This document shows, in pieces, positions 45,834 through 52,536 of a DNA stretch of 64,000 bases. Both the position numbers and the translations under genes were made by a program. The notes under the pieces are model-generated. The model was not told the origin of the DNA. It did no database searches and was given only the letters and a program-made list of their open reading frames with translations. Each line of letters begins with the position of its first letter. Positions within the stretch are counted from its first letter, which is position 1. The DNA lies in the NCBI GenBank assembly GCA_965262725.1, contig OZ253555.1:1344001-1408000 (forward strand), written 5' to 3'. The stretch comes from Dehalococcoidia bacterium (GTDB lineage Bacteria > Chloroflexota > Dehalococcoidia > UBA2979).

Positions 45834-46587
45834 GCCTCCGCGCGGCCGCCGTCCGGAGCCGCCCGCCGGTGGACCGGCTGGCGCCCCGATTCGACGGGAT
45901 CGTATCTTCGCACAGGGTGCCCCGTCCCACGCGCACCGGGGGCGAATCGCGCCCGGTGCGCGTGGGACGCTAGTGTCCCGATTCAGGGATGCGCTCTAGA
46001 TATCCGGCGAGGTTGGTGTGTCCCGAAGTCGAAGGGCGGGTGACGTGATGACGTAACCGGTCTGGAGACATGCTCGTCGTTGCCAGCCGGTGCGAGTCCG
46101 GCACGGGTAACTGTCAGGAGGCCCGTTAGCAGGTCGGCGGCGCGGACGGGAAACGGTCCACGTCGAAGCCCGACGTCAAGAGCCCTATCAGGGGGAGCAA
46201 CCAAGCGGTCCGCAGCATCAAGCGAAGCCTGCCGCGTCGTTAACGGATAGTGGAGGAGCCGAGCCCGGCAATTCAGGGCGAAGGCCATGGACGAGGTGAA
46301 GATCCTGAATGCGCGTTGCGCTGCAGCCTCAAGGAACCTCCCGGCGTAAGGGGCGTGGAACGTTTGGAAGGTAGCGACGGGAACGGGAGAAGCCCTCCCC
46401 GGCCCGGCACCCTGCGAGATGGTGTCGGAGCGAGGTGCCCTATAACCGGTCAAAGCCGGGAAGTGGGCAGCTAGCCGGAAGGGTGACGGAGGGGGTCGTA
46501 GTACCGCTTGAGCCGGACGGACAACACAACCGCCGGTGATGGGAAGGACCCCTGCTTTGCTCACGCGTGGGGAGTAGGGATGAATCG

Positions 46588-47131
46588 GTGAGTGCCCAAG
46601 CGGCTAACTCCATCCAAGACAAGGTCCGAACACTACAACGCACGCTTTACCGGGCGGCCAAGGCCGACCCCAATAGACGCTTTCATGCGCTCTACGACAA
46701 GGTTTATCGCAGAGACATTCTGGAGCGCGCGTGGGAGCAGGTGCGTCGCAATCGCGGCGCAGCCGGTATCGACGGCGTCACGCTCGCCGAGGTCGAGCGC
46801 TACGGCGTGGAGCGCCTGCTGGATGAACTGGCCACGGAACTGAAGGAGGGAAGATACCGGGTGCAGCCGAGCCGCCGGGTCTGGATACCCAAGCCCGGTC
46901 GGTCGGAAGAGCGCCCGCTCTCGATTCCTTCGGTCCGCGACCGCATCGTGCAGGCGTCGCTGAAGCTCGTGACGGAGCCGGTCTTCGAGGCCGACTTCCT
47001 GCCATGCAGCTTCGGCTTCCGCCCGAAGCGTTCGGCCCATGACGCCCTGCAGGTCCTCATTGACGAGGCGTGGCGGGGCAGGCGGTGGGTAGTGGAGACG
47101 GACATCGCCTCGTGTTTCGAGTCGATACCGC
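46588..47131 (+). CDS. ltrA: Group II intron reverse transcriptase/maturase, 5' part
   Basis: RFHALYDKV, GAAGIDG, IPKPG..RPLSIPSVRDRIVQ, SFGFRP; start codon uncertain. Confidence 0.9.
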
Positions 47132-47732
47132 GTGCGTCCGGAAGTCGAAGGGGTGGTGACGTGATGACGTGACCGGTCCGGAGACATGCTCGTTGCTGCC
47201 AGCCGGTGAGAGTCCGGCACGGGTAACTGTCAGGAGGCCCGTTAGCAGGTCGGCGGCGTGGACGGGAAACGGTCTGCGTCGAAGCCCGACGTCAAGAGCC
47301 CTATGAGGGGGAGCAAACGTGCGGTCCGCAGCATGACGCGAAGTCTGCCGCGCCGTGAGACTCGCCTGTCTATTGACAGGACCAAGGAGGAGCCGAGCCC
47401 GGGTGGTCAGGGCGAAGGCCATGGACGAGGTGAAGATCCTGGAATGCAGCCTCAAGAAACCTCCCGGCGTATGGGACGTGGAACGTACGGAAGGTAGCGA
47501 CGGGAACCGGAGAAGCCCTCCCCGGCCCGGCACCCTGTGAGAGGGCGTCGGAGCGAGGCGTCCTATAACCGGTCAGAGCCGGGAAGTGGACAGCCAGCCG
47601 GAAGGGTGGCGGAGGGGGTCGTAGTACCGCTGGAGCCGGACGGACAACATAACCGCCGGTGATGGGAAGGACCCCTACTTTGTCCGTGCATGTTGCTGGG
47701 GGTGTGGACTGGTGAGTGCCCCTCGGGGCTAG

Positions 47733-48940
47733 GGGTTCTCTGAACAGGTCGCCGCGTCGTTACTGGAGCACATGCACACTCCGATGACTATATGCGATCA
47801 TGGCACTCCTCCGGGAAAGGGGAGCGCTGCCATGCATCAGCCGACATTCGCGAGAGTCGAGTTCGAGCGGGATGGCTACAAGACGCGCCGCCAGAAGTTC
47901 CTCGAACGGCTGGATGGCCTCGTCCCGTGGCAGAGGTTCGAAGCAGCCATCGAGCCCCACTACCCGAAACCGGGCCGCGGGCGGAGGCCCTACCCGCTCT
48001 CCGTGATGCTGCGCATCCATACCGTGCAACTCTGCTACAACCTCAGCGACCCCGGCATGGAGGATCTGCTCCACGAGGCCGAGTCGGTGCGAGCCTTTTG
48101 CTTCCTCACGCTCTCCGAGCCCATCCCCGACGAGACGACGATCCTCAACTTCCGGCACCTGCTCGAGCGCCACTCCCTGGGTAGCAGGATCCTCCAACTC
48201 ATCAACGAGCACCTCACGAGCAAGGGATTGAAGCTGAGCGAGGGCAGCATCGTGGATGCGACCATCATCTCGGCGCCATCGTCGACGAAGAATCGCGGGC
48301 GGGCGCGGGACCCGGAGATGCATCAGACCAAGAAGGGGAAACAGTGGTTCTTCGGGATGAAGCTGCACATCGGCGCCGACAGGGATACTGGACTGGTCCA
48401 CAACTTCACGACCACGCCTGCGAACGTGTCGGACGTGTCTGAGACGCACCGCCTGCTGCACGGCGAGGAAGCCGAGGTCTACGGCGACGCCGGGTACCGG
48501 GGCGTGCAGAAGAGACCCGAGAACGCGGACTCCAGGGTCAAGGACTGGAACGTGGCGATGCGCCCGGGCCTCCGGCGTGCGCTCGACCCGGAGAGTCCTG
48601 AGGCCGTCGAGGAGAAGCGGAAGGCATCGGTGCGAGCGCTGGTGGAGCACCCGTTCTACAGCGTGAAGCGGCGCTTCGGCTACGCCAAGGTGCGGTACCG
48701 GGGTCTCTTCAAGAACCACGAGCGGTGTGCGGTCTTGCTGGGGTTCCACAACCTGCTCACCGCGAAGCCGCACCGTGCCTGACCGTGGGTGGAGTGCGCC
48801 CTCCCCGCCCCACACGGGGCGAGGAGGGGAGCCACAGGGGCCCGCGAGGGGGCGGATATGACCACTGTCATCGGGAATCCGCCTGAGAGCGCCTGACCGC
48901 GGCGAAACTGGGTCGCTAGACCCACCTGATCAGACTTGCC
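47733..48940 (+). mobile_element. IS5-family element, copy 1 (1208 bp)
   Basis: Imperfect TIRs GGGTTCTCTGAACAGGT / ACCTGATCAGACTTGCC; CTAG direct repeats at 47729 and 48941. Confidence 0.93.
47832..48782 (+). CDS. IS5 family transposase
   Basis: PDETTILNFRHLLE, IVDATII.APSSTKN, FGMKLHIG.D, YGDAGY, RALVEHPF. Confidence 0.95.
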   Translation: MHQPTFARVEFERDGYKTRRQKFLERLDGLVPWQRFEAAIEPHYPKPGRGRRPYPLSVMLRIHTVQLCYNLSDPGMEDLLHEAESVRAFCFLTLSEPIPDETTILNFRHLLERHSLGSRILQLINEHLTSKGLKLSEGSIVDATIISAPSSTKNRGRARDPEMHQTKKGKQWFFGMKLHIGADRDTGLVHNFTTTPANVSDVSETHRLLHGEEAEVYGDAGYRGVQKRPENADSRVKDWNVAMRPGLRRALDPESPEAVEEKRKASVRALVEHPFYSVKRRFGYAKVRYRGLFKNHERCAVLLGFHNLLTAKPHRA

Positions 48941-49205
48941 CTAGCAACCACTTGGTAGGGTTCGAGGCTCTCCGCACATGCTGTACCGGCTGGCCAAGGC
49001 ACGACCCACGTTGTGGGGAGCGCTGCATGCCATCTGGTGAAGGGCATCGGTGAGCCGGATGAGGGAGAACCTCACGTCCGGTTCGATGTGGCAGGGGCTG
49101 GAGACGGACGCTGCTATGGCCGTGGAGTTGGGCACCACCGGGAAACCGGCTTGGAACTGATGCGCCACCGCCTACGGCTCGCACCGCGCCAGCCCCTGAC
49201 CCTAC

Positions 49206-49999
49206 ACGACCGTCTGATGACGGCCGTCGAGGAACGGATATGCGACCGCAATCTCCTGAAGCTGGTACGGGCGATGCTGCGTGCCGGTGTGATGGAGTCG
49301 GGGGTCGTGCAGCACAGCGCGACGGGTACGCCGCAGGGCGGGGTGATGTCCCCGCTGCTGGCCAATGTCTACCTGCACCGGTTGGACCGGGACTGGGAGG
49401 CGAAGGGTGATGGCGTGCTGGTGCGCTATGCGGATGACCTCGTGGTGCTCTGCCGGAGCCGGGAGGAAGCGGAGCGGGCGTTGGCCCTGCTGCGTGACCT
49501 GCTGGGTGAGCTCGGACTGGAGCTCAAGGCGGAGAAGACGCGCATCGTGCACCTGCGGGAGGGAGGCGAGGGGCTGGAGTTCCTCGGCTTCGAGCATCGC
49601 TGGGTACGTGCGAAGCGCAACAAGAATATCCAGTTCCTCGCACGCTGGCCCTCACGGCGAGCGATGCAGCGGGCGCGGGACCGCATCCGTGAAATCACGG
49701 CGCGGTTGCGTCTGCTGCTGAGTCCCCGGCAGGTCGTGGAGGAAGTCAATCGCTACCTCCGCGGCTGGATGAGCTACTTCCGCTACGGCAACTCGGCGAG
49801 GGCGTTCGACGTCCTGCACTGGTTTGCCATGTGGAGACTCAAACTCTGGCTGGGGAAGCGGTTGCGTTGGCGGCGACGCCATCGCGGGCACCCGTTTCCC
49901 GTCGCCGACCGTCTGGGGCTCATCTCGCTAGCTGGACAGCGCGTCGTGGCACCACGGCCATATCGACCGTGGCGGGGCACCCCGCATGCCGCCCGGTGA
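49206..49999 (+). CDS. ltrA: Group II intron reverse transcriptase/maturase, 3' part (no En domain)
   Basis: GTPQGGVMSPLLAN.YL, RYADD, FLGF, LRGWMSYF. Confidence 0.92.
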
Positions 50000-50159
50000 A
50001 GGGCATCGGTGAGCCGGATGAGGGAAAACCTCACGTCCGGTTCGAGGCGGCAGGGGCTGGAGACGGACGATGCTACGGCTGTGGAGATGGGCGCCACCGG
50101 GAAACCGGCCTGGCAATATGCGCCACCGCCTACGGCTCGCACCGCGCCAGCCCCTGACC

Positions 50160-51212
50160 CTACTCAAGGATCTGGTCCGCGGACTTGTGCCAGATGAAGG
50201 GCCTCGGATTCTCGTTCCAGCTGGCGACCCACATCTCCACTGAGCGGATCAGATCAGGGACGCTATGGTGCGTGCCGCGCCGGAGCCACTTGCTGGTGAG
50301 CTCTGCAAACCAGCGCTCCACGAGGTTCATCCAGGAGCTGTAGGTCGGCGTGAAATGGAAGGTGAAGCGGGGATGGCGCTGGAGCCAGCGCTGGATGGCG
50401 GGCGTGCGGTGCGTGGAGACGTTGTCGAGCACGACATGCACCGCCAGCTCACGGGGAACGCTTTGGTCGATGAGGGCGAGGAACTGCTGGAACTCCCGAG
50501 CCCGGTGCCGGGGGGTCATCTCCGTGATCACGCATCCCGAGGCGACATCGAGCGCCGCGTAGAGGTTCGTCGTGCCGTGACGGATGTAGTCGTGCGTCTG
50601 GCGGGCGGGGACGCCGGGCATCATCGGCACCGTCGGCGCGGTGCGGTCGAGTGCCTGGATCTGGGTCTTCTCGTCCACGCACAGCACAACCGCCGCGTCG
50701 GGCGGGTTGAGATAGAGCCCGGCCACGTCGCGCACCTTGTCGATGAACTGCGGGTCGGGCGACAGCTTGAAGCTCTCCACGAGGCGCGGCTTCAGGCCGA
50801 AGGCGCGCCAGATCCTGGAGATCCCCGACTGCGACATCCCGAGCGCGGCTGCCATCGATCGGGTCGACCAGTGCGTCGCGTTGGGAGGCTGCTCCTCCAG
50901 CGTCGTGACGATCACCGCTTCCACCTGTGCATCGGCGATCGTGCGCGGCGCCCCGGGGCGCGGCTCATCCTGTAGCCCATCGAGCCGCCCCTGCGCAAAG
51001 CGCCGGCGCCACTTGCCGACGGTGACCGGATGGCAATCGAGCGCCGCGGCGATCGCTTTATTCGATGTCCCCTCGGCCGCTGCCAGGACGATGCGACAGC
51101 GCAGCGCCAGCGCCTGGGCCGATGTCGGCCGGCGCGCCCACCGCTCCAGCGTCTCACGCTCCTCGTCGCTCAGGACGATCGCGACCGTCGGCCGTCCGAT
51201 TCGGATGCTCAT
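50160..51212 (-). CDS. IS630 transposase, C-terminus truncated by the antisense intron
   Basis: HTH region, VDEK / LDN / NLVERWF DDE triad; native tail lies at 46015-45970. Confidence 0.93.
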   Translation of the reverse strand: MSIRIGRPTVAIVLSDEERETLERWARRPTSAQALALRCRIVLAAAEGTSNKAIAAALDCHPVTVGKWRRRFAQGRLDGLQDEPRPGAPRTIADAQVEAVIVTTLEEQPPNATHWSTRSMAAALGMSQSGISRIWRAFGLKPRLVESFKLSPDPQFIDKVRDVAGLYLNPPDAAVVLCVDEKTQIQALDRTAPTVPMMPGVPARQTHDYIRHGTTNLYAALDVASGCVITEMTPRHRAREFQQFLALIDQSVPRELAVHVVLDNVSTHRTPAIQRWLQRHPRFTFHFTPTYSSWMNLVERWFAELTSKWLRRGTHHSVPDLIRSVEMWVASWNENPRPFIWHKSADQILE

Positions 51213-51297
51213 GACACTCCAGAGTCTGCCCCATGGGGCAAAACCCCGCTGTGCCACCATACCCGTTATCTGTCGCTATTACGAATCAGGACACTAG

Positions 51298-52505
51298 GGG
51301 TTCTCTGAACAGGTCGCCGCGTCGTTACTGGAGCACATGCACACTCCGATGACTATATGCGATCATGGCACTCCTCCGGGAAAGGGGAGCGCTGCCATGC
51401 ATCAGCCGACATTCGCGAGAGTCGAGTTCGAGCGGGATGGCTACAAGACGCGCCGCCAGAAGTTCCTCGAACGGCTGGATGGCCTCGTCCCGTGGCAGAG
51501 GTTCGAAGCAGCCATCGAGCCCCACTACCCGAAACCGGGCCGCGGGCGGAGGCCCTACCCGCTCTCCGTGATGCTGCGCATCCATACCGTGCAACTCTGC
51601 TACAACCTCAGCGACCCCGGCATGGAGGATCTGCTCCACGAGGCCGAGTCGGTGCGAGCCTTTTGCTTCCTCACGCTCTCCGAGCCCATCCCCGACGAGA
51701 CGACGATCCTCAACTTCCGGCACCTGCTCGAGCGCCACTCCCTGGGTAGCAGGATCCTCCAACTCATCAACGAGCACCTCACGAGCAAGGGATTGAAGCT
51801 GAGCGAGGGCAGCATCGTGGATGCGACCATCATCTCGGCGCCATCGTCGACGAAGAATCGCGGGCGGGCGCGGGACCCGGAGATGCATCAGACCAAGAAG
51901 GGGAAACAGTGGTTCTTCGGGATGAAGCTGCACATCGGCGCCGACAGGGATACTGGACTGGTCCACAACTTCACGACCACGCCTGCGAACGTGTCGGACG
52001 TGTCTGAGACGCACCGCCTGCTGCACGGCGAGGAAGCCGAGGTCTACGGCGACGCCGGGTACCGGGGCGTGCAGAAGAGACCCGAGAACGCGGACTCCAG
52101 GGTCAAGGACTGGAACGTGGCGATGCGCCCGGGCCTCCGGCGTGCGCTCGACCCGGAGAGTCCTGAGGCCGTCGAGGAGAAGCGGAAGGCATCGGTGCGA
52201 GCGCTGGTGGAGCACCCGTTCTACAGCGTGAAGCGGCGCTTCGGCTACGCCAAGGTGCGGTACCGGGGTCTCTTCAAGAACCACGAGCGGTGTGCGGTCT
52301 TGCTGGGGTTCCACAACCTGCTCACCGCGAAGCCGCACCGTGCCTGACCGTGGGTGGAGTGCGCCCTCCCCGCCCCACACGGGGCGAGGAGGGGAGCCAC
52401 AGGGGCCCGCGAGGGGGCGGATATGACCACTGTCATCGGGAATCCGCCTGAGAGCGCCTGACCGCGGCGAAACTGGGTCGCTAGACCCACCTGATCAGAC
52501 TTGCC
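51298..52505 (+). mobile_element. IS5-family element, copy 2 (appears identical to copy 1)
   Basis: Same ends and 1208-bp length; CTAG direct repeats at 51294 and 52506. Confidence 0.93.
51397..52347 (+). CDS. IS5 family transposase
   Basis: Translation identical to 47832-48782. Confidence 0.95.
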   Translation: MHQPTFARVEFERDGYKTRRQKFLERLDGLVPWQRFEAAIEPHYPKPGRGRRPYPLSVMLRIHTVQLCYNLSDPGMEDLLHEAESVRAFCFLTLSEPIPDETTILNFRHLLERHSLGSRILQLINEHLTSKGLKLSEGSIVDATIISAPSSTKNRGRARDPEMHQTKKGKQWFFGMKLHIGADRDTGLVHNFTTTPANVSDVSETHRLLHGEEAEVYGDAGYRGVQKRPENADSRVKDWNVAMRPGLRRALDPESPEAVEEKRKASVRALVEHPFYSVKRRFGYAKVRYRGLFKNHERCAVLLGFHNLLTAKPHRA

Positions 52506-52536
52506 CTAGAGGGGCGCCCGGAAGGCGGGAGCGGCG

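Follow-up and report, generated by a model that had tools for sequence, protein, structure and literature searches.

A 64,000-nucleotide stretch from the genome of a Dehalococcoidia bacterium (contig OZ253555.1, positions 1,344,001 to 1,408,000; G000:C1:1344001-1408000), referred to here as the window and numbered from its own first letter, contains between 45000 and 52000 a nest of mobile elements in which an IS630 element is interrupted by an outer group II intron, the outer intron by an inner group II intron, and the inner intron by an IS5-family element. We propose, with a probability of about 90%, that the two introns form a bacterial group II twintron in which each recognizes its own insertion site through exon-binding sites 1, 2 and 3 (EBS1, EBS2 and EBS3) of domain I. 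All three sites differ between the introns and each set matches the exons of its own intron, indicating that target specificity has diverged between them. The proposal builds on the sequences themselves, a consensus structure, covariation, exact junctions and the many sites occupied by an identical inner intron, all of which were observed directly. A first-pass annotation of the window had described EBS1 and EBS2 together with their complements in the 5' exons (intron-binding sites, IBS1 and IBS2), and its coordinates, letters and pair counts were all correct (three Watson-Crick and two G-U pairs for the outer EBS1, four and one for the inner EBS1, and six Watson-Crick pairs for each EBS2). 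To these two contacts we add EBS3, which, judged by covariation, is a third.

Nested introns in an IS630 element

The outer intron (type A; 46016..50163, forward strand) begins with GTGTG, ends with CCCTAC and encodes a reverse transcriptase (RT)/maturase; it splits the IS630 element between 46015 and 50164. The inner intron (type B; 47132..49205, forward strand), with GTGCG and CCCTAC at its ends, comprises 862 nt plus the 1212 nt of the insertion sequence (IS), and lies in the same orientation within the outer RT gene (47131|49206), A49206 being the first base of its 3' exon. Both introns show the 5' GUGYG and 3' AY ends of group II introns. The inner intron has no open reading frame (ORF) and lacks ~1.2 kb of domain IV compared with the outer one; by all appearances it is an ORF-less derivative of the outer intron's lineage.

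The RT/maturase ORF is situated in domain IV of the outer intron and is read from the forward strand in two parts. The first (46567..47131) matches positions 2-137 of TIGR04416 with 172 bits and positions 1-83 of RVT_1, and the second (49206..49999) matches positions 140-352 of TIGR04416 with 214 bits, positions 90-204 of RVT_1, and GIIM. Each half by itself scores below the whole-protein cut-off of TIGR04416, which is 300 bits. Since the two halves cover positions 2-137 and 140-352, excision of the inner intron would produce one continuous RT gene, with C47131 joined to A49206 and C49207 to re-form a codon. The locus therefore has the makeup of a twintron, that is, a complete inner intron in the same orientation whose excision restores the RT frame and contiguous coverage of the profile.

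The domain I-IV model RF02003 matched the outer intron at 46084-46220 (95.3 bits) and the inner intron at 47200-47336 (102.8 bits), with a gathering threshold of 49. For the domain V-VI model RF00029 (gathering threshold 40), the outer intron scored 41.5 bits at 50009-50076, and the inner intron scored 37.5 bits (E 4.5e-6) at 49050-49205, which is slightly below the threshold, the match terminating at the inferred 3' splice site. The 3' model reached its end in 16 homologous loci of other genomes as well. The insertion of the outer intron is exact, since the 14 empty IS630 sites in the genome read ...GAGGTTG|TCAAGG.

EBS1 pairs with the end of the 5' exon

The EBS1 hairpin of the outer intron (46258..46285, forward strand), placed by consensus folds and covariation, has the form GCC-GA-GCCC-loop-GGGC-GAA-GGC, with GCCC at 46263-66, the loop GGCAATTCA at 46267-75 and GGGC at 46276-79. 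Its core, CAAT (46269-46272), is complementary to the IBS1 core GTTG (46012..46015, forward strand; exon positions -4 to -1), which closes the exon end GGTTG (46011-15). In the inner intron, the corresponding hairpin (47392..47419, forward strand), supported by the consensus folds, the local fold and the pairing of all 12 ectopic sites discussed below, consists of GCCC at 47397-400, the loop GGGTGGTCA at 47401-09 and GGGC at 47410-13. Its core GTGG (47403-47406) faces the IBS1 core CCGC (47128..47131, forward strand; -4 to -1) in the exon end ACCGC (47127-31).

We then analyzed covariation between this loop and the exon in homologous introns. Scanning one genome per species with a hairpin pattern that left the loop free gave at least 102 stretches, 80 loci of which were taken. 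A search for a GUGYG-type start motif set a unique 5' end in 59 of the 80; the remaining 21 were dropped because the start was absent or ambiguous in the expected range, or because of a contig edge. Extrapolating 5' ends from nhmmer alignments was discarded as unreliable unless the match began at model positions 1-3. Together with eight earlier sequences, this provided 67 introns among the matches listed, 59 of them non-redundant.

Across the 59 non-redundant introns, 224 of the 236 cells formed by loop positions 3-6 and exon positions -1 to -4 were paired, while 2000 shuffles of the exons gave a mean of 101 (sd 9.7) and a maximum of 134. The 67 listed introns contained 28 distinct EBS1 cores, 26 of which had a site with 4/4 pairing, and 55 of the introns paired 4/4. 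Six lineages each had a core that matched its own exon: CAAT/GTTG in type A, GTGG/CCGC in type B and ACCC/GGGT in a third type of the same genome, type C, as well as GGAA/TTCC, GGGA/TCCC and TCCC/GGGA in relatives from three other genomes (G003, G008 and G018, respectively). The identification of the GCCC-loop-GGGC hairpin loop as EBS1 in the first-pass annotation was thus borne out, with the exception of its fifth base, which is considered below.

EBS2 lies in the second variable segment

The first-pass annotation had looked for EBS2 in the other variable segment of domain I. In the inner intron, the sequence GACTCG (47359..47364, forward strand) is single-stranded and lies directly 5' of a hairpin at 47365-47380 (CCTGTC-TATT-GACAGG); it is complementary to the IBS2 CGAGTC (47118..47123, forward strand) at exon positions -14 to -9. 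The outer candidate, CGGATA (46244..46249, forward strand), lies just 3' of a conserved CGU, the hairpin that would follow being deleted, and it matches the IBS2 TATCCG (46001..46006, forward strand) at -15 to -10, which reads TAGCCG at one of the 12 occupied sites. In the family as a whole, the 5-6 nt that begin 2-3 bases past the conserved CGU pair with exon -14 to -9 (or -13 to -9), and the inner GACTCG/CGAGTC is found exactly at this place. Type C has GAGTCC/GGACTC in the same columns, which amounts to two compensatory changes relative to the inner intron.

For cognate and non-cognate combinations, the initial 10 nt of the segment were matched to exon -17 to -7 and the best helix was scored. 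A strict anchoring pattern failed in 38 of the 67 introns; a looser one was therefore used, with which four were dropped and 63 cognate pairs remained. A score of at least 5 was reached by 33 of the 63 cognate pairs compared with 5.7% of 3674 non-cognate pairs, and a score of at least 6 by 25% and 0.8%, respectively. These results support the placement of EBS2 in this segment, with a shift of one base in the outer intron, where CGGAT pairs in the family register (-14 to -10) and T at -15 can pair with A46249. The sixth outer pair is uncertain, because T-15 is also seen at nine of the 12 ectopic inner sites and, in the available part of a report on RmInt1, a critical T-15 is described (PMC4615759). 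The outer EBS2 thus appears to fit the family register, but is less secure than the inner EBS2.

EBS3 covaries with the first base of the 3' exon

A single base in the motif GUA-N-GGG differs between the introns in step with the 3' exon. In the outer intron it is A46349 (forward strand), in GUA-A-GGGG, unpaired between two domain I stems, and in the inner intron it is U47472 (forward strand), in GUA-U-GGGA. Types A and C, with T as the first base of the 3' exon, carry A at this position, and type B, with A as the first base of its 3' exon, carries U. Sixteen homologues had a full match to the 3' model, and in the 10 of these for which both the 3' end and the motif could be set, the combination of EBS3 and +1 was G-C in six out of six and A-T in two out of two, with T found once with A and once with G. 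The covariation of this base with +1 argues for pairing of A46349 with T50164 and of U47472 with A49206. Recognition of the 3' exon is of the IIB type, through a base in an internal loop of domain I and not through the neighbor of EBS1, the nucleotide 5' of EBS1 being G in every close relative irrespective of the +1 base.

Consensus structure

Consensus folds were computed with RNAalifold on types A, B and C and then on 58 non-redundant related domain I sequences. Both runs agreed that EBS1 is a terminal loop, EBS2 an unpaired stretch and the EBS3 base unpaired between two stems. The order in the domain I consensus is a stem CGCGUCG/CGGCGU, the unpaired EBS2 stretch, a small hairpin, a stem GGAGG/CCUCC, and the EBS1 hairpin. 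The small hairpin 3' of EBS2 is present in type B, type C and most relatives, with compensatory changes between CCUGUC/GACAGG (B) and CCCGCC/GGCGGG (C); in type A it has gone through an 18-nt deletion, and an 11-nt insertion is found farther along. A compensatory G-C to A-U change was seen in the stem next to EBS3. Domain I folding of both introns hence placed EBS1 and EBS2 as in the first-pass annotation, and the covariation across homologues described above supported the two assignments. The outcomes that would have spoken against them, namely a fold with EBS1 or EBS2 elsewhere or homologues with the same loops at non-complementary exons, did not appear.

Domain VI of the outer intron (50047..50163, forward strand; ~117 nt) is closed by a helix GGCAGGGGCUGG / CCAGCCCCUG-A-CC, with A50157 bulged as the putative branch point. 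Its counterpart in the inner intron (49089-49205, forward strand) has a bulged A49199. Both adenosines are bulged in the folds and located 6 nt ahead of the last intron base (domain VI fold z -4.15 and -3.52 for the outer and inner intron, respectively). This domain VI is unusually long and holds an internal branched insert, with conservation of the closing helix and of the bulged A.

Distribution of the introns in the genome

The genome contains 12 copies of type A, 28 of type B, and three full and one partial copy of type C (78-79% identical). Type A was found only in IS630-type sites, 12 of the 26 being occupied and 14 empty. Its length is 4148 nt in the window, 2936 nt in six of the 12 copies and 2935 nt in one. 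The type B copies comprise 15 in RT genes, one in a tandem and 12 at ectopic sites. The 24 uninterrupted type B copies all share one identical sequence of 862 nt, which is also that of the window copy once its IS is left out. In all 12 type A and all three full type C introns (15/15), type B splits the RT gene at one common codon midway through the RT domain, and the assembly contains no intact RT gene of type A or C.

The 12 ectopic sites show which mismatches type B tolerates. The IBS1 core was pairable in all 12 (6.7% at random genome positions), and the only bases found were Y at -1, -3 and -4 and R at -2, which is everything that G-U-G-G can pair with. At least five of the six EBS2 pairs could form in the fixed register at 7/12 (2.8% at random), and at least three further sites have CGAG(T/G)(C/T) displaced by 1-2 bases. 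The +1 base is A in seven and G in two of the 12. Nine of these sites have T at -15, as do the cognate sites of all three types.

One ectopic type B copy (G000:C1:381562) lies close to the start of the transposase in a different IS630 copy; the counterpart of this site in the window is 51203-51225. Compared with the window's empty sequence, a change of GGATG to GGGTG turns a Watson-Crick pair of IBS2 into G-U, and a change of ATGAC to ATCAC makes position -3 of IBS1 pairable. A head-to-tail tandem of type B occupies one RT site outside the window (G000:C1:549500-551223; 549500/550362). Such a tandem is expected, because reinsertion at an occupied 5' junction puts the intron's own first G at +1, where it can pair with EBS3 = U.

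Alternative explanations

The most serious alternative accepts the pairings as genuine and holds that an IS630 element already carrying the twintron was copied here, by transposition with transposase supplied in trans or by recombination, so that the locus records an older retargeting in place of two insertions made on the spot. We consider this unlikely as an account of the data as a whole, although several observations are in its favor. All 12 outer copies carry the inner intron, the composite length recurs exactly in half of them and to within one nucleotide in another, five occupied IS630 copies are 98-100% identical to that in the window, and the transposase frame is uninterrupted in 14 IS630 copies. 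However, an outer intron that is 99.6-100% identical is found in seven IS630 relatives whose flanks are only ~80-84% identical, which requires independent homing and indicates that type A has homed independently into at least two IS subfamilies. Moreover, one and the same inner intron sequence recurs in the type A hosts, in their type C counterparts, which share 78% identity with A, and at 12 unrelated sites, and hence this intron moves on its own. For the window copy itself, homing and copying together with its IS cannot be told apart. The claim of the first-pass annotation that both insertions are true reverse-splicing events was accordingly upheld as far as the exact boundaries go, as given by the empty IS630 sites and the RT profile, whereas an origin of this particular copy by reverse splicing at this site is not demonstrable.

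A second alternative, which we regard as very improbable, is that the intron-encoded protein mainly chooses the site through a DNA motif, such as T-15 or the TCGAG block, with RNA complementarity secondary or serving splicing only. The recurrence of T-15 at three quarters of the ectopic sites and at every cognate site of types A, B and C would fit such a choice, and the available text on RmInt1 reports a critical T-15 that has no RNA partner (PMC4615759). Against it, exon positions -1 to -4, about -14 to -9, and +1 covary with the intron bases across 28 EBS1 cores and numerous variants of EBS2 and EBS3, and the changes seen in ectopic IBS1 sequences (R at -2; Y at -1, -3 and -4) are only those that preserve pairing. 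That the complementarities are due to chance, and the hairpin is not an exon-binding site at all, can be dismissed, for while a lone match of 5-6 bp is not rare (5.7% of non-cognate pairs reach an EBS2-type score of at least 5), 2000 shuffles paired at most 134 of the 236 cells, 224 of which are paired in the actual data, and 12/12 ectopic sites were pairable against 6.7% expected per site.

A number of results nevertheless weigh against recognition by EBS1, EBS2 and EBS3 or narrow its detail. The first-pass annotation had drawn EBS1 with five bases, and the fifth pair found no comparative support: loop position 7 (T46273/T47407) is T in 48 of the 67 introns and pairs with -5 in just 29 of the 67, although the pair can still form in both window introns (G-U and A-U). 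The pattern used to collect homologues fixes the hairpin stems, and the paired cells are not independent events, because many homologues are related and have common target sites. For EBS2, 30 of the 63 cognate helices score below 5, and the outer helix (-15 to -10) is one base off the family register of -14 to -9. T at -15 may be recognized in some way other than by EBS2 pairing. In relatives from G008 that also lack the small hairpin, the EBS2 pairing is ambiguous: the family register yields 3 bp, and a GU-rich helix can be drawn at -17 to -12 instead. Isolated EBS segments folded no more stably than shuffled sequences (z -0.2 and -0.6), and the minimum-energy fold of the outer segment by itself is mis-paired and lacks the EBS1 hairpin, whereas the local fold of the inner segment forms it. 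Finally, no contig spanning a splice junction was found among the 10 and 5 contigs from two public RNA runs, a result that is uninformative on splicing either way.

Divergence of target specificity

Recognition through EBS1, EBS2 and EBS3 remains the reading we prefer, and with it the substance of the retargeting described in the first-pass annotation, in that EBS1 and EBS2 differ such that each intron fits its own 5' exon. Two of its particulars need revision. The change of target had been attributed to a few loop substitutions, but within the first 545 nt, 52 substitutions and 29 indel columns (two indels) separate type A from type B; four of the substitutions are in EBS1, one is in EBS3, and 25 differing columns are in the EBS2 segment, which was rebuilt. 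A direction from IS630 to the RT gene had also been assumed, but the third intron type targets yet another site and nothing polarizes the change.

By established group II biology, excised intron RNA together with the RT would reverse-splice into DNA where EBS1, EBS2 and EBS3 can pair and would then be copied into DNA, a process that would be retrohoming at cognate sites and retrotransposition at ectopic sites. Positions 3-6 of the 9-nt EBS1 loop would pair with exon -1 to -4, the 5-6 nt right after the conserved CGU with approximately -14 to -9, and the single base of GUA-N-GGG with +1. No match to an endonuclease domain was found in the RT with Pfam or NCBIfam, and the ORF stops 38 residues past the GIIM match. 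An endonuclease-free RT of this kind would prime from nascent strands at replication forks, which have been shown to serve as primers for RmInt1-type introns in the portions available of two reports (PMC4424553, PMC8914252).

The most striking feature of the system is that all 15 related RT genes are split by the ORF-less inner intron. By the same established biology, the RT of types A and C would act in trans to splice and mobilize type B. With type B lying inside the RT domain of all these genes, it would have to be spliced out before any RT is made. This raises the tentative idea, to which we give less than even odds, that the ORF-less 862-nt intron is an obligate hyperparasite that saturates the RT genes of both helper lineages. 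If so, RT production would depend on the splicing of a parasite that normally needs the RT as its maturase, a self-referential loop that could switch or brake the whole intron population. The perfect identity of the 28 parasite copies suggests that the loop ran very recently.

A second, distant group II intron family is present in the genome, with uninterrupted RT genes at about a dozen places (e.g. G000:C1 336424-337533 and 1850342-1851451) and an RT that is 36-41% identical. One copy of this family (near 1522477-1525777) holds an ectopic inner-type intron. The RT of this second family might be able to help type B.

Comparison with known systems

The closest described system, as far as the accessible text of the source goes, is TeI3/TeI4 of Thermosynechococcus elongatus (Mohr, Ghanem & Lambowitz, 2010, PMC2882425). 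There, one lineage has proliferated in one genome to 28 introns, ORF-less derivatives outnumber ORF-containing introns, and six families are told apart by EBS1, EBS2 and EBS3. Insertion into IS elements and into the ORFs of related introns has given rise to twintrons, the inner introns are mutually identical, and ectopic IBS matches are imperfect, all as described in the available parts of the same paper (PMC2882425). The systems differ in that the TeI3/TeI4 inner intron lies between the first two ATGs, according to this text, so that protein is possible without splicing (PMC2882425); splicing is obligatory here, in contrast, because the RT domain is split at about profile position 138 of 353. 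Five of eight ORF-containing introns are twintrons in the T. elongatus system and two have continuous ORFs, by the same partial account (PMC2882425), compared with 15/15 interrupted RT genes here. The RNA and protein lineage is also another one, and the present system is known from sequence alone.

A second point of comparison is the group of RmInt1, RmInt2 and Sr.md.I1 from Sinorhizobium, in which the RT likewise lacks an endonuclease domain and the target is of the IS630-Tc1 group, as the accessible sections of PMC4615759 describe. Recognition in that group is by EBS1, EBS2 and EBS3 over approximately -20 to +5, relatives in the same host differ in EBS, with a one-nucleotide register difference in EBS2 and G-C versus U-A at EBS3, and a conserved T-15 is present. 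Head-to-tail copies of RmInt2 are explained there by pairing of an EBS3 U with the intron's first G, and no twintron or ORF-less parasite is described in those sections (PMC4615759). The present RT differs in being nearest to actinobacterial RTs, which were its best plasmid matches (56-61% identity over the C-terminal half), and the outer intron is antisense to the transposase. The RT corresponds to that of class D (RmInt1-like) introns in its domain content, in that the intron-encoded protein has no endonuclease domain.

Nested group II introns of Methanosarcina acetivorans were reportedly described by Dai and Zimmerly in 2003. According to the available parts of two later sources, nested group II introns of this archaeon home into related introns (PMC4424553, PMC2882425). 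In these partial accounts, ORF-less and RT-encoding introns home site-specifically into related introns and so build nested arrays, as seems to be the case here. The Methanosarcina arrays, as depicted there, differ in host domain, in reaching up to five levels of nesting and in having non-coding flanking exons, compared with two levels, an IS and one tandem in the present genome; judging from the same texts, the exact target within the RT gene may differ as well. Ll.LtrB and other introns have been retargeted as targetrons by rewriting EBS1, EBS2 and delta/EBS3. The likeness to targetrons is that a few changes of exon-binding bases redirect insertion; the difference is that the change here is natural and accompanied by much other divergence.

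The finding leaves existing knowledge unchanged, because the mechanism is textbook. What makes it valuable is that a single genome supplies an unusually complete natural data set: three related introns, each with a different set of EBS1, EBS2 and EBS3, twelve ectopic sites displaying tolerated mismatches, empty outer targets, a tandem, and a helper RT that is interrupted throughout. These data could define target rules for an endonuclease-free intron lineage of the actinobacterial type and could help in the study of how a non-autonomous intron coexists with its helper.

ORF-less relatives in other genomes

Relatives of ~860 nt without an ORF were also seen in L050, L063, L104 and L123. Six loci (L050, L054, L063, L064, L104 and L123) had been guessed to be nested on the grounds that their 5' exons resemble domain I CCCGGCGUA-GGGG, a guess that was rejected since no domain I match lies within a few hundred nucleotides upstream; the only second domain I matches were found ~1.4 kb upstream (L063) and ~2.9 kb upstream (L050). 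The sole nested case was L086:4035-5341, from a metagenome-assembled Acidimicrobiales genome, where an ORF-less relative of ~856 nt is nested in domain III of an intron of the same family, behind ...GGAGGGGGTCGTAGT.

Public reads and flanking elements

A contig from public run X5, which is of the 'DNA?' kind, joins 47130 to 49205 and so corresponds to exact removal of the inner intron; its shorter side is 29 letters, which is below the caution limit, and it was not used as evidence. A read joint that 'goes back 1122' was explained as outer-intron sequence placed on the inner intron, which resembles it. The junction 47728|48941, corresponding to the inner intron free of the IS5-family element, is present in contigs of runs X3 and X5.

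The IS630-family element (50164..51297, reverse strand) has a left stub at 45971-46015 and inverted ends at 45971 and 51297, and is split by the outer intron. Its transposase ORF (50160..51260, reverse strand) matches NF033545 with 273 bits. In an uninterrupted IS630 copy, the transposase frame runs 14 codons further (...ADQIL-DNLAGYLERIPESGH followed by a stop), showing that the outer intron is antisense to the transposase and truncates it, with the last 14-15 codons removed.

The IS5-family element (47729..48940, forward strand) lies in domain IV of the inner intron and is flanked by a CTAG duplication; its transposase, at 47772-48779, matches DDE_Tnp_1 and NF033581. A second copy of the same element, at ~51294-52510 and less than 4 kb from the first, begins at the terminal CTAG of the IS630 inverted repeat.

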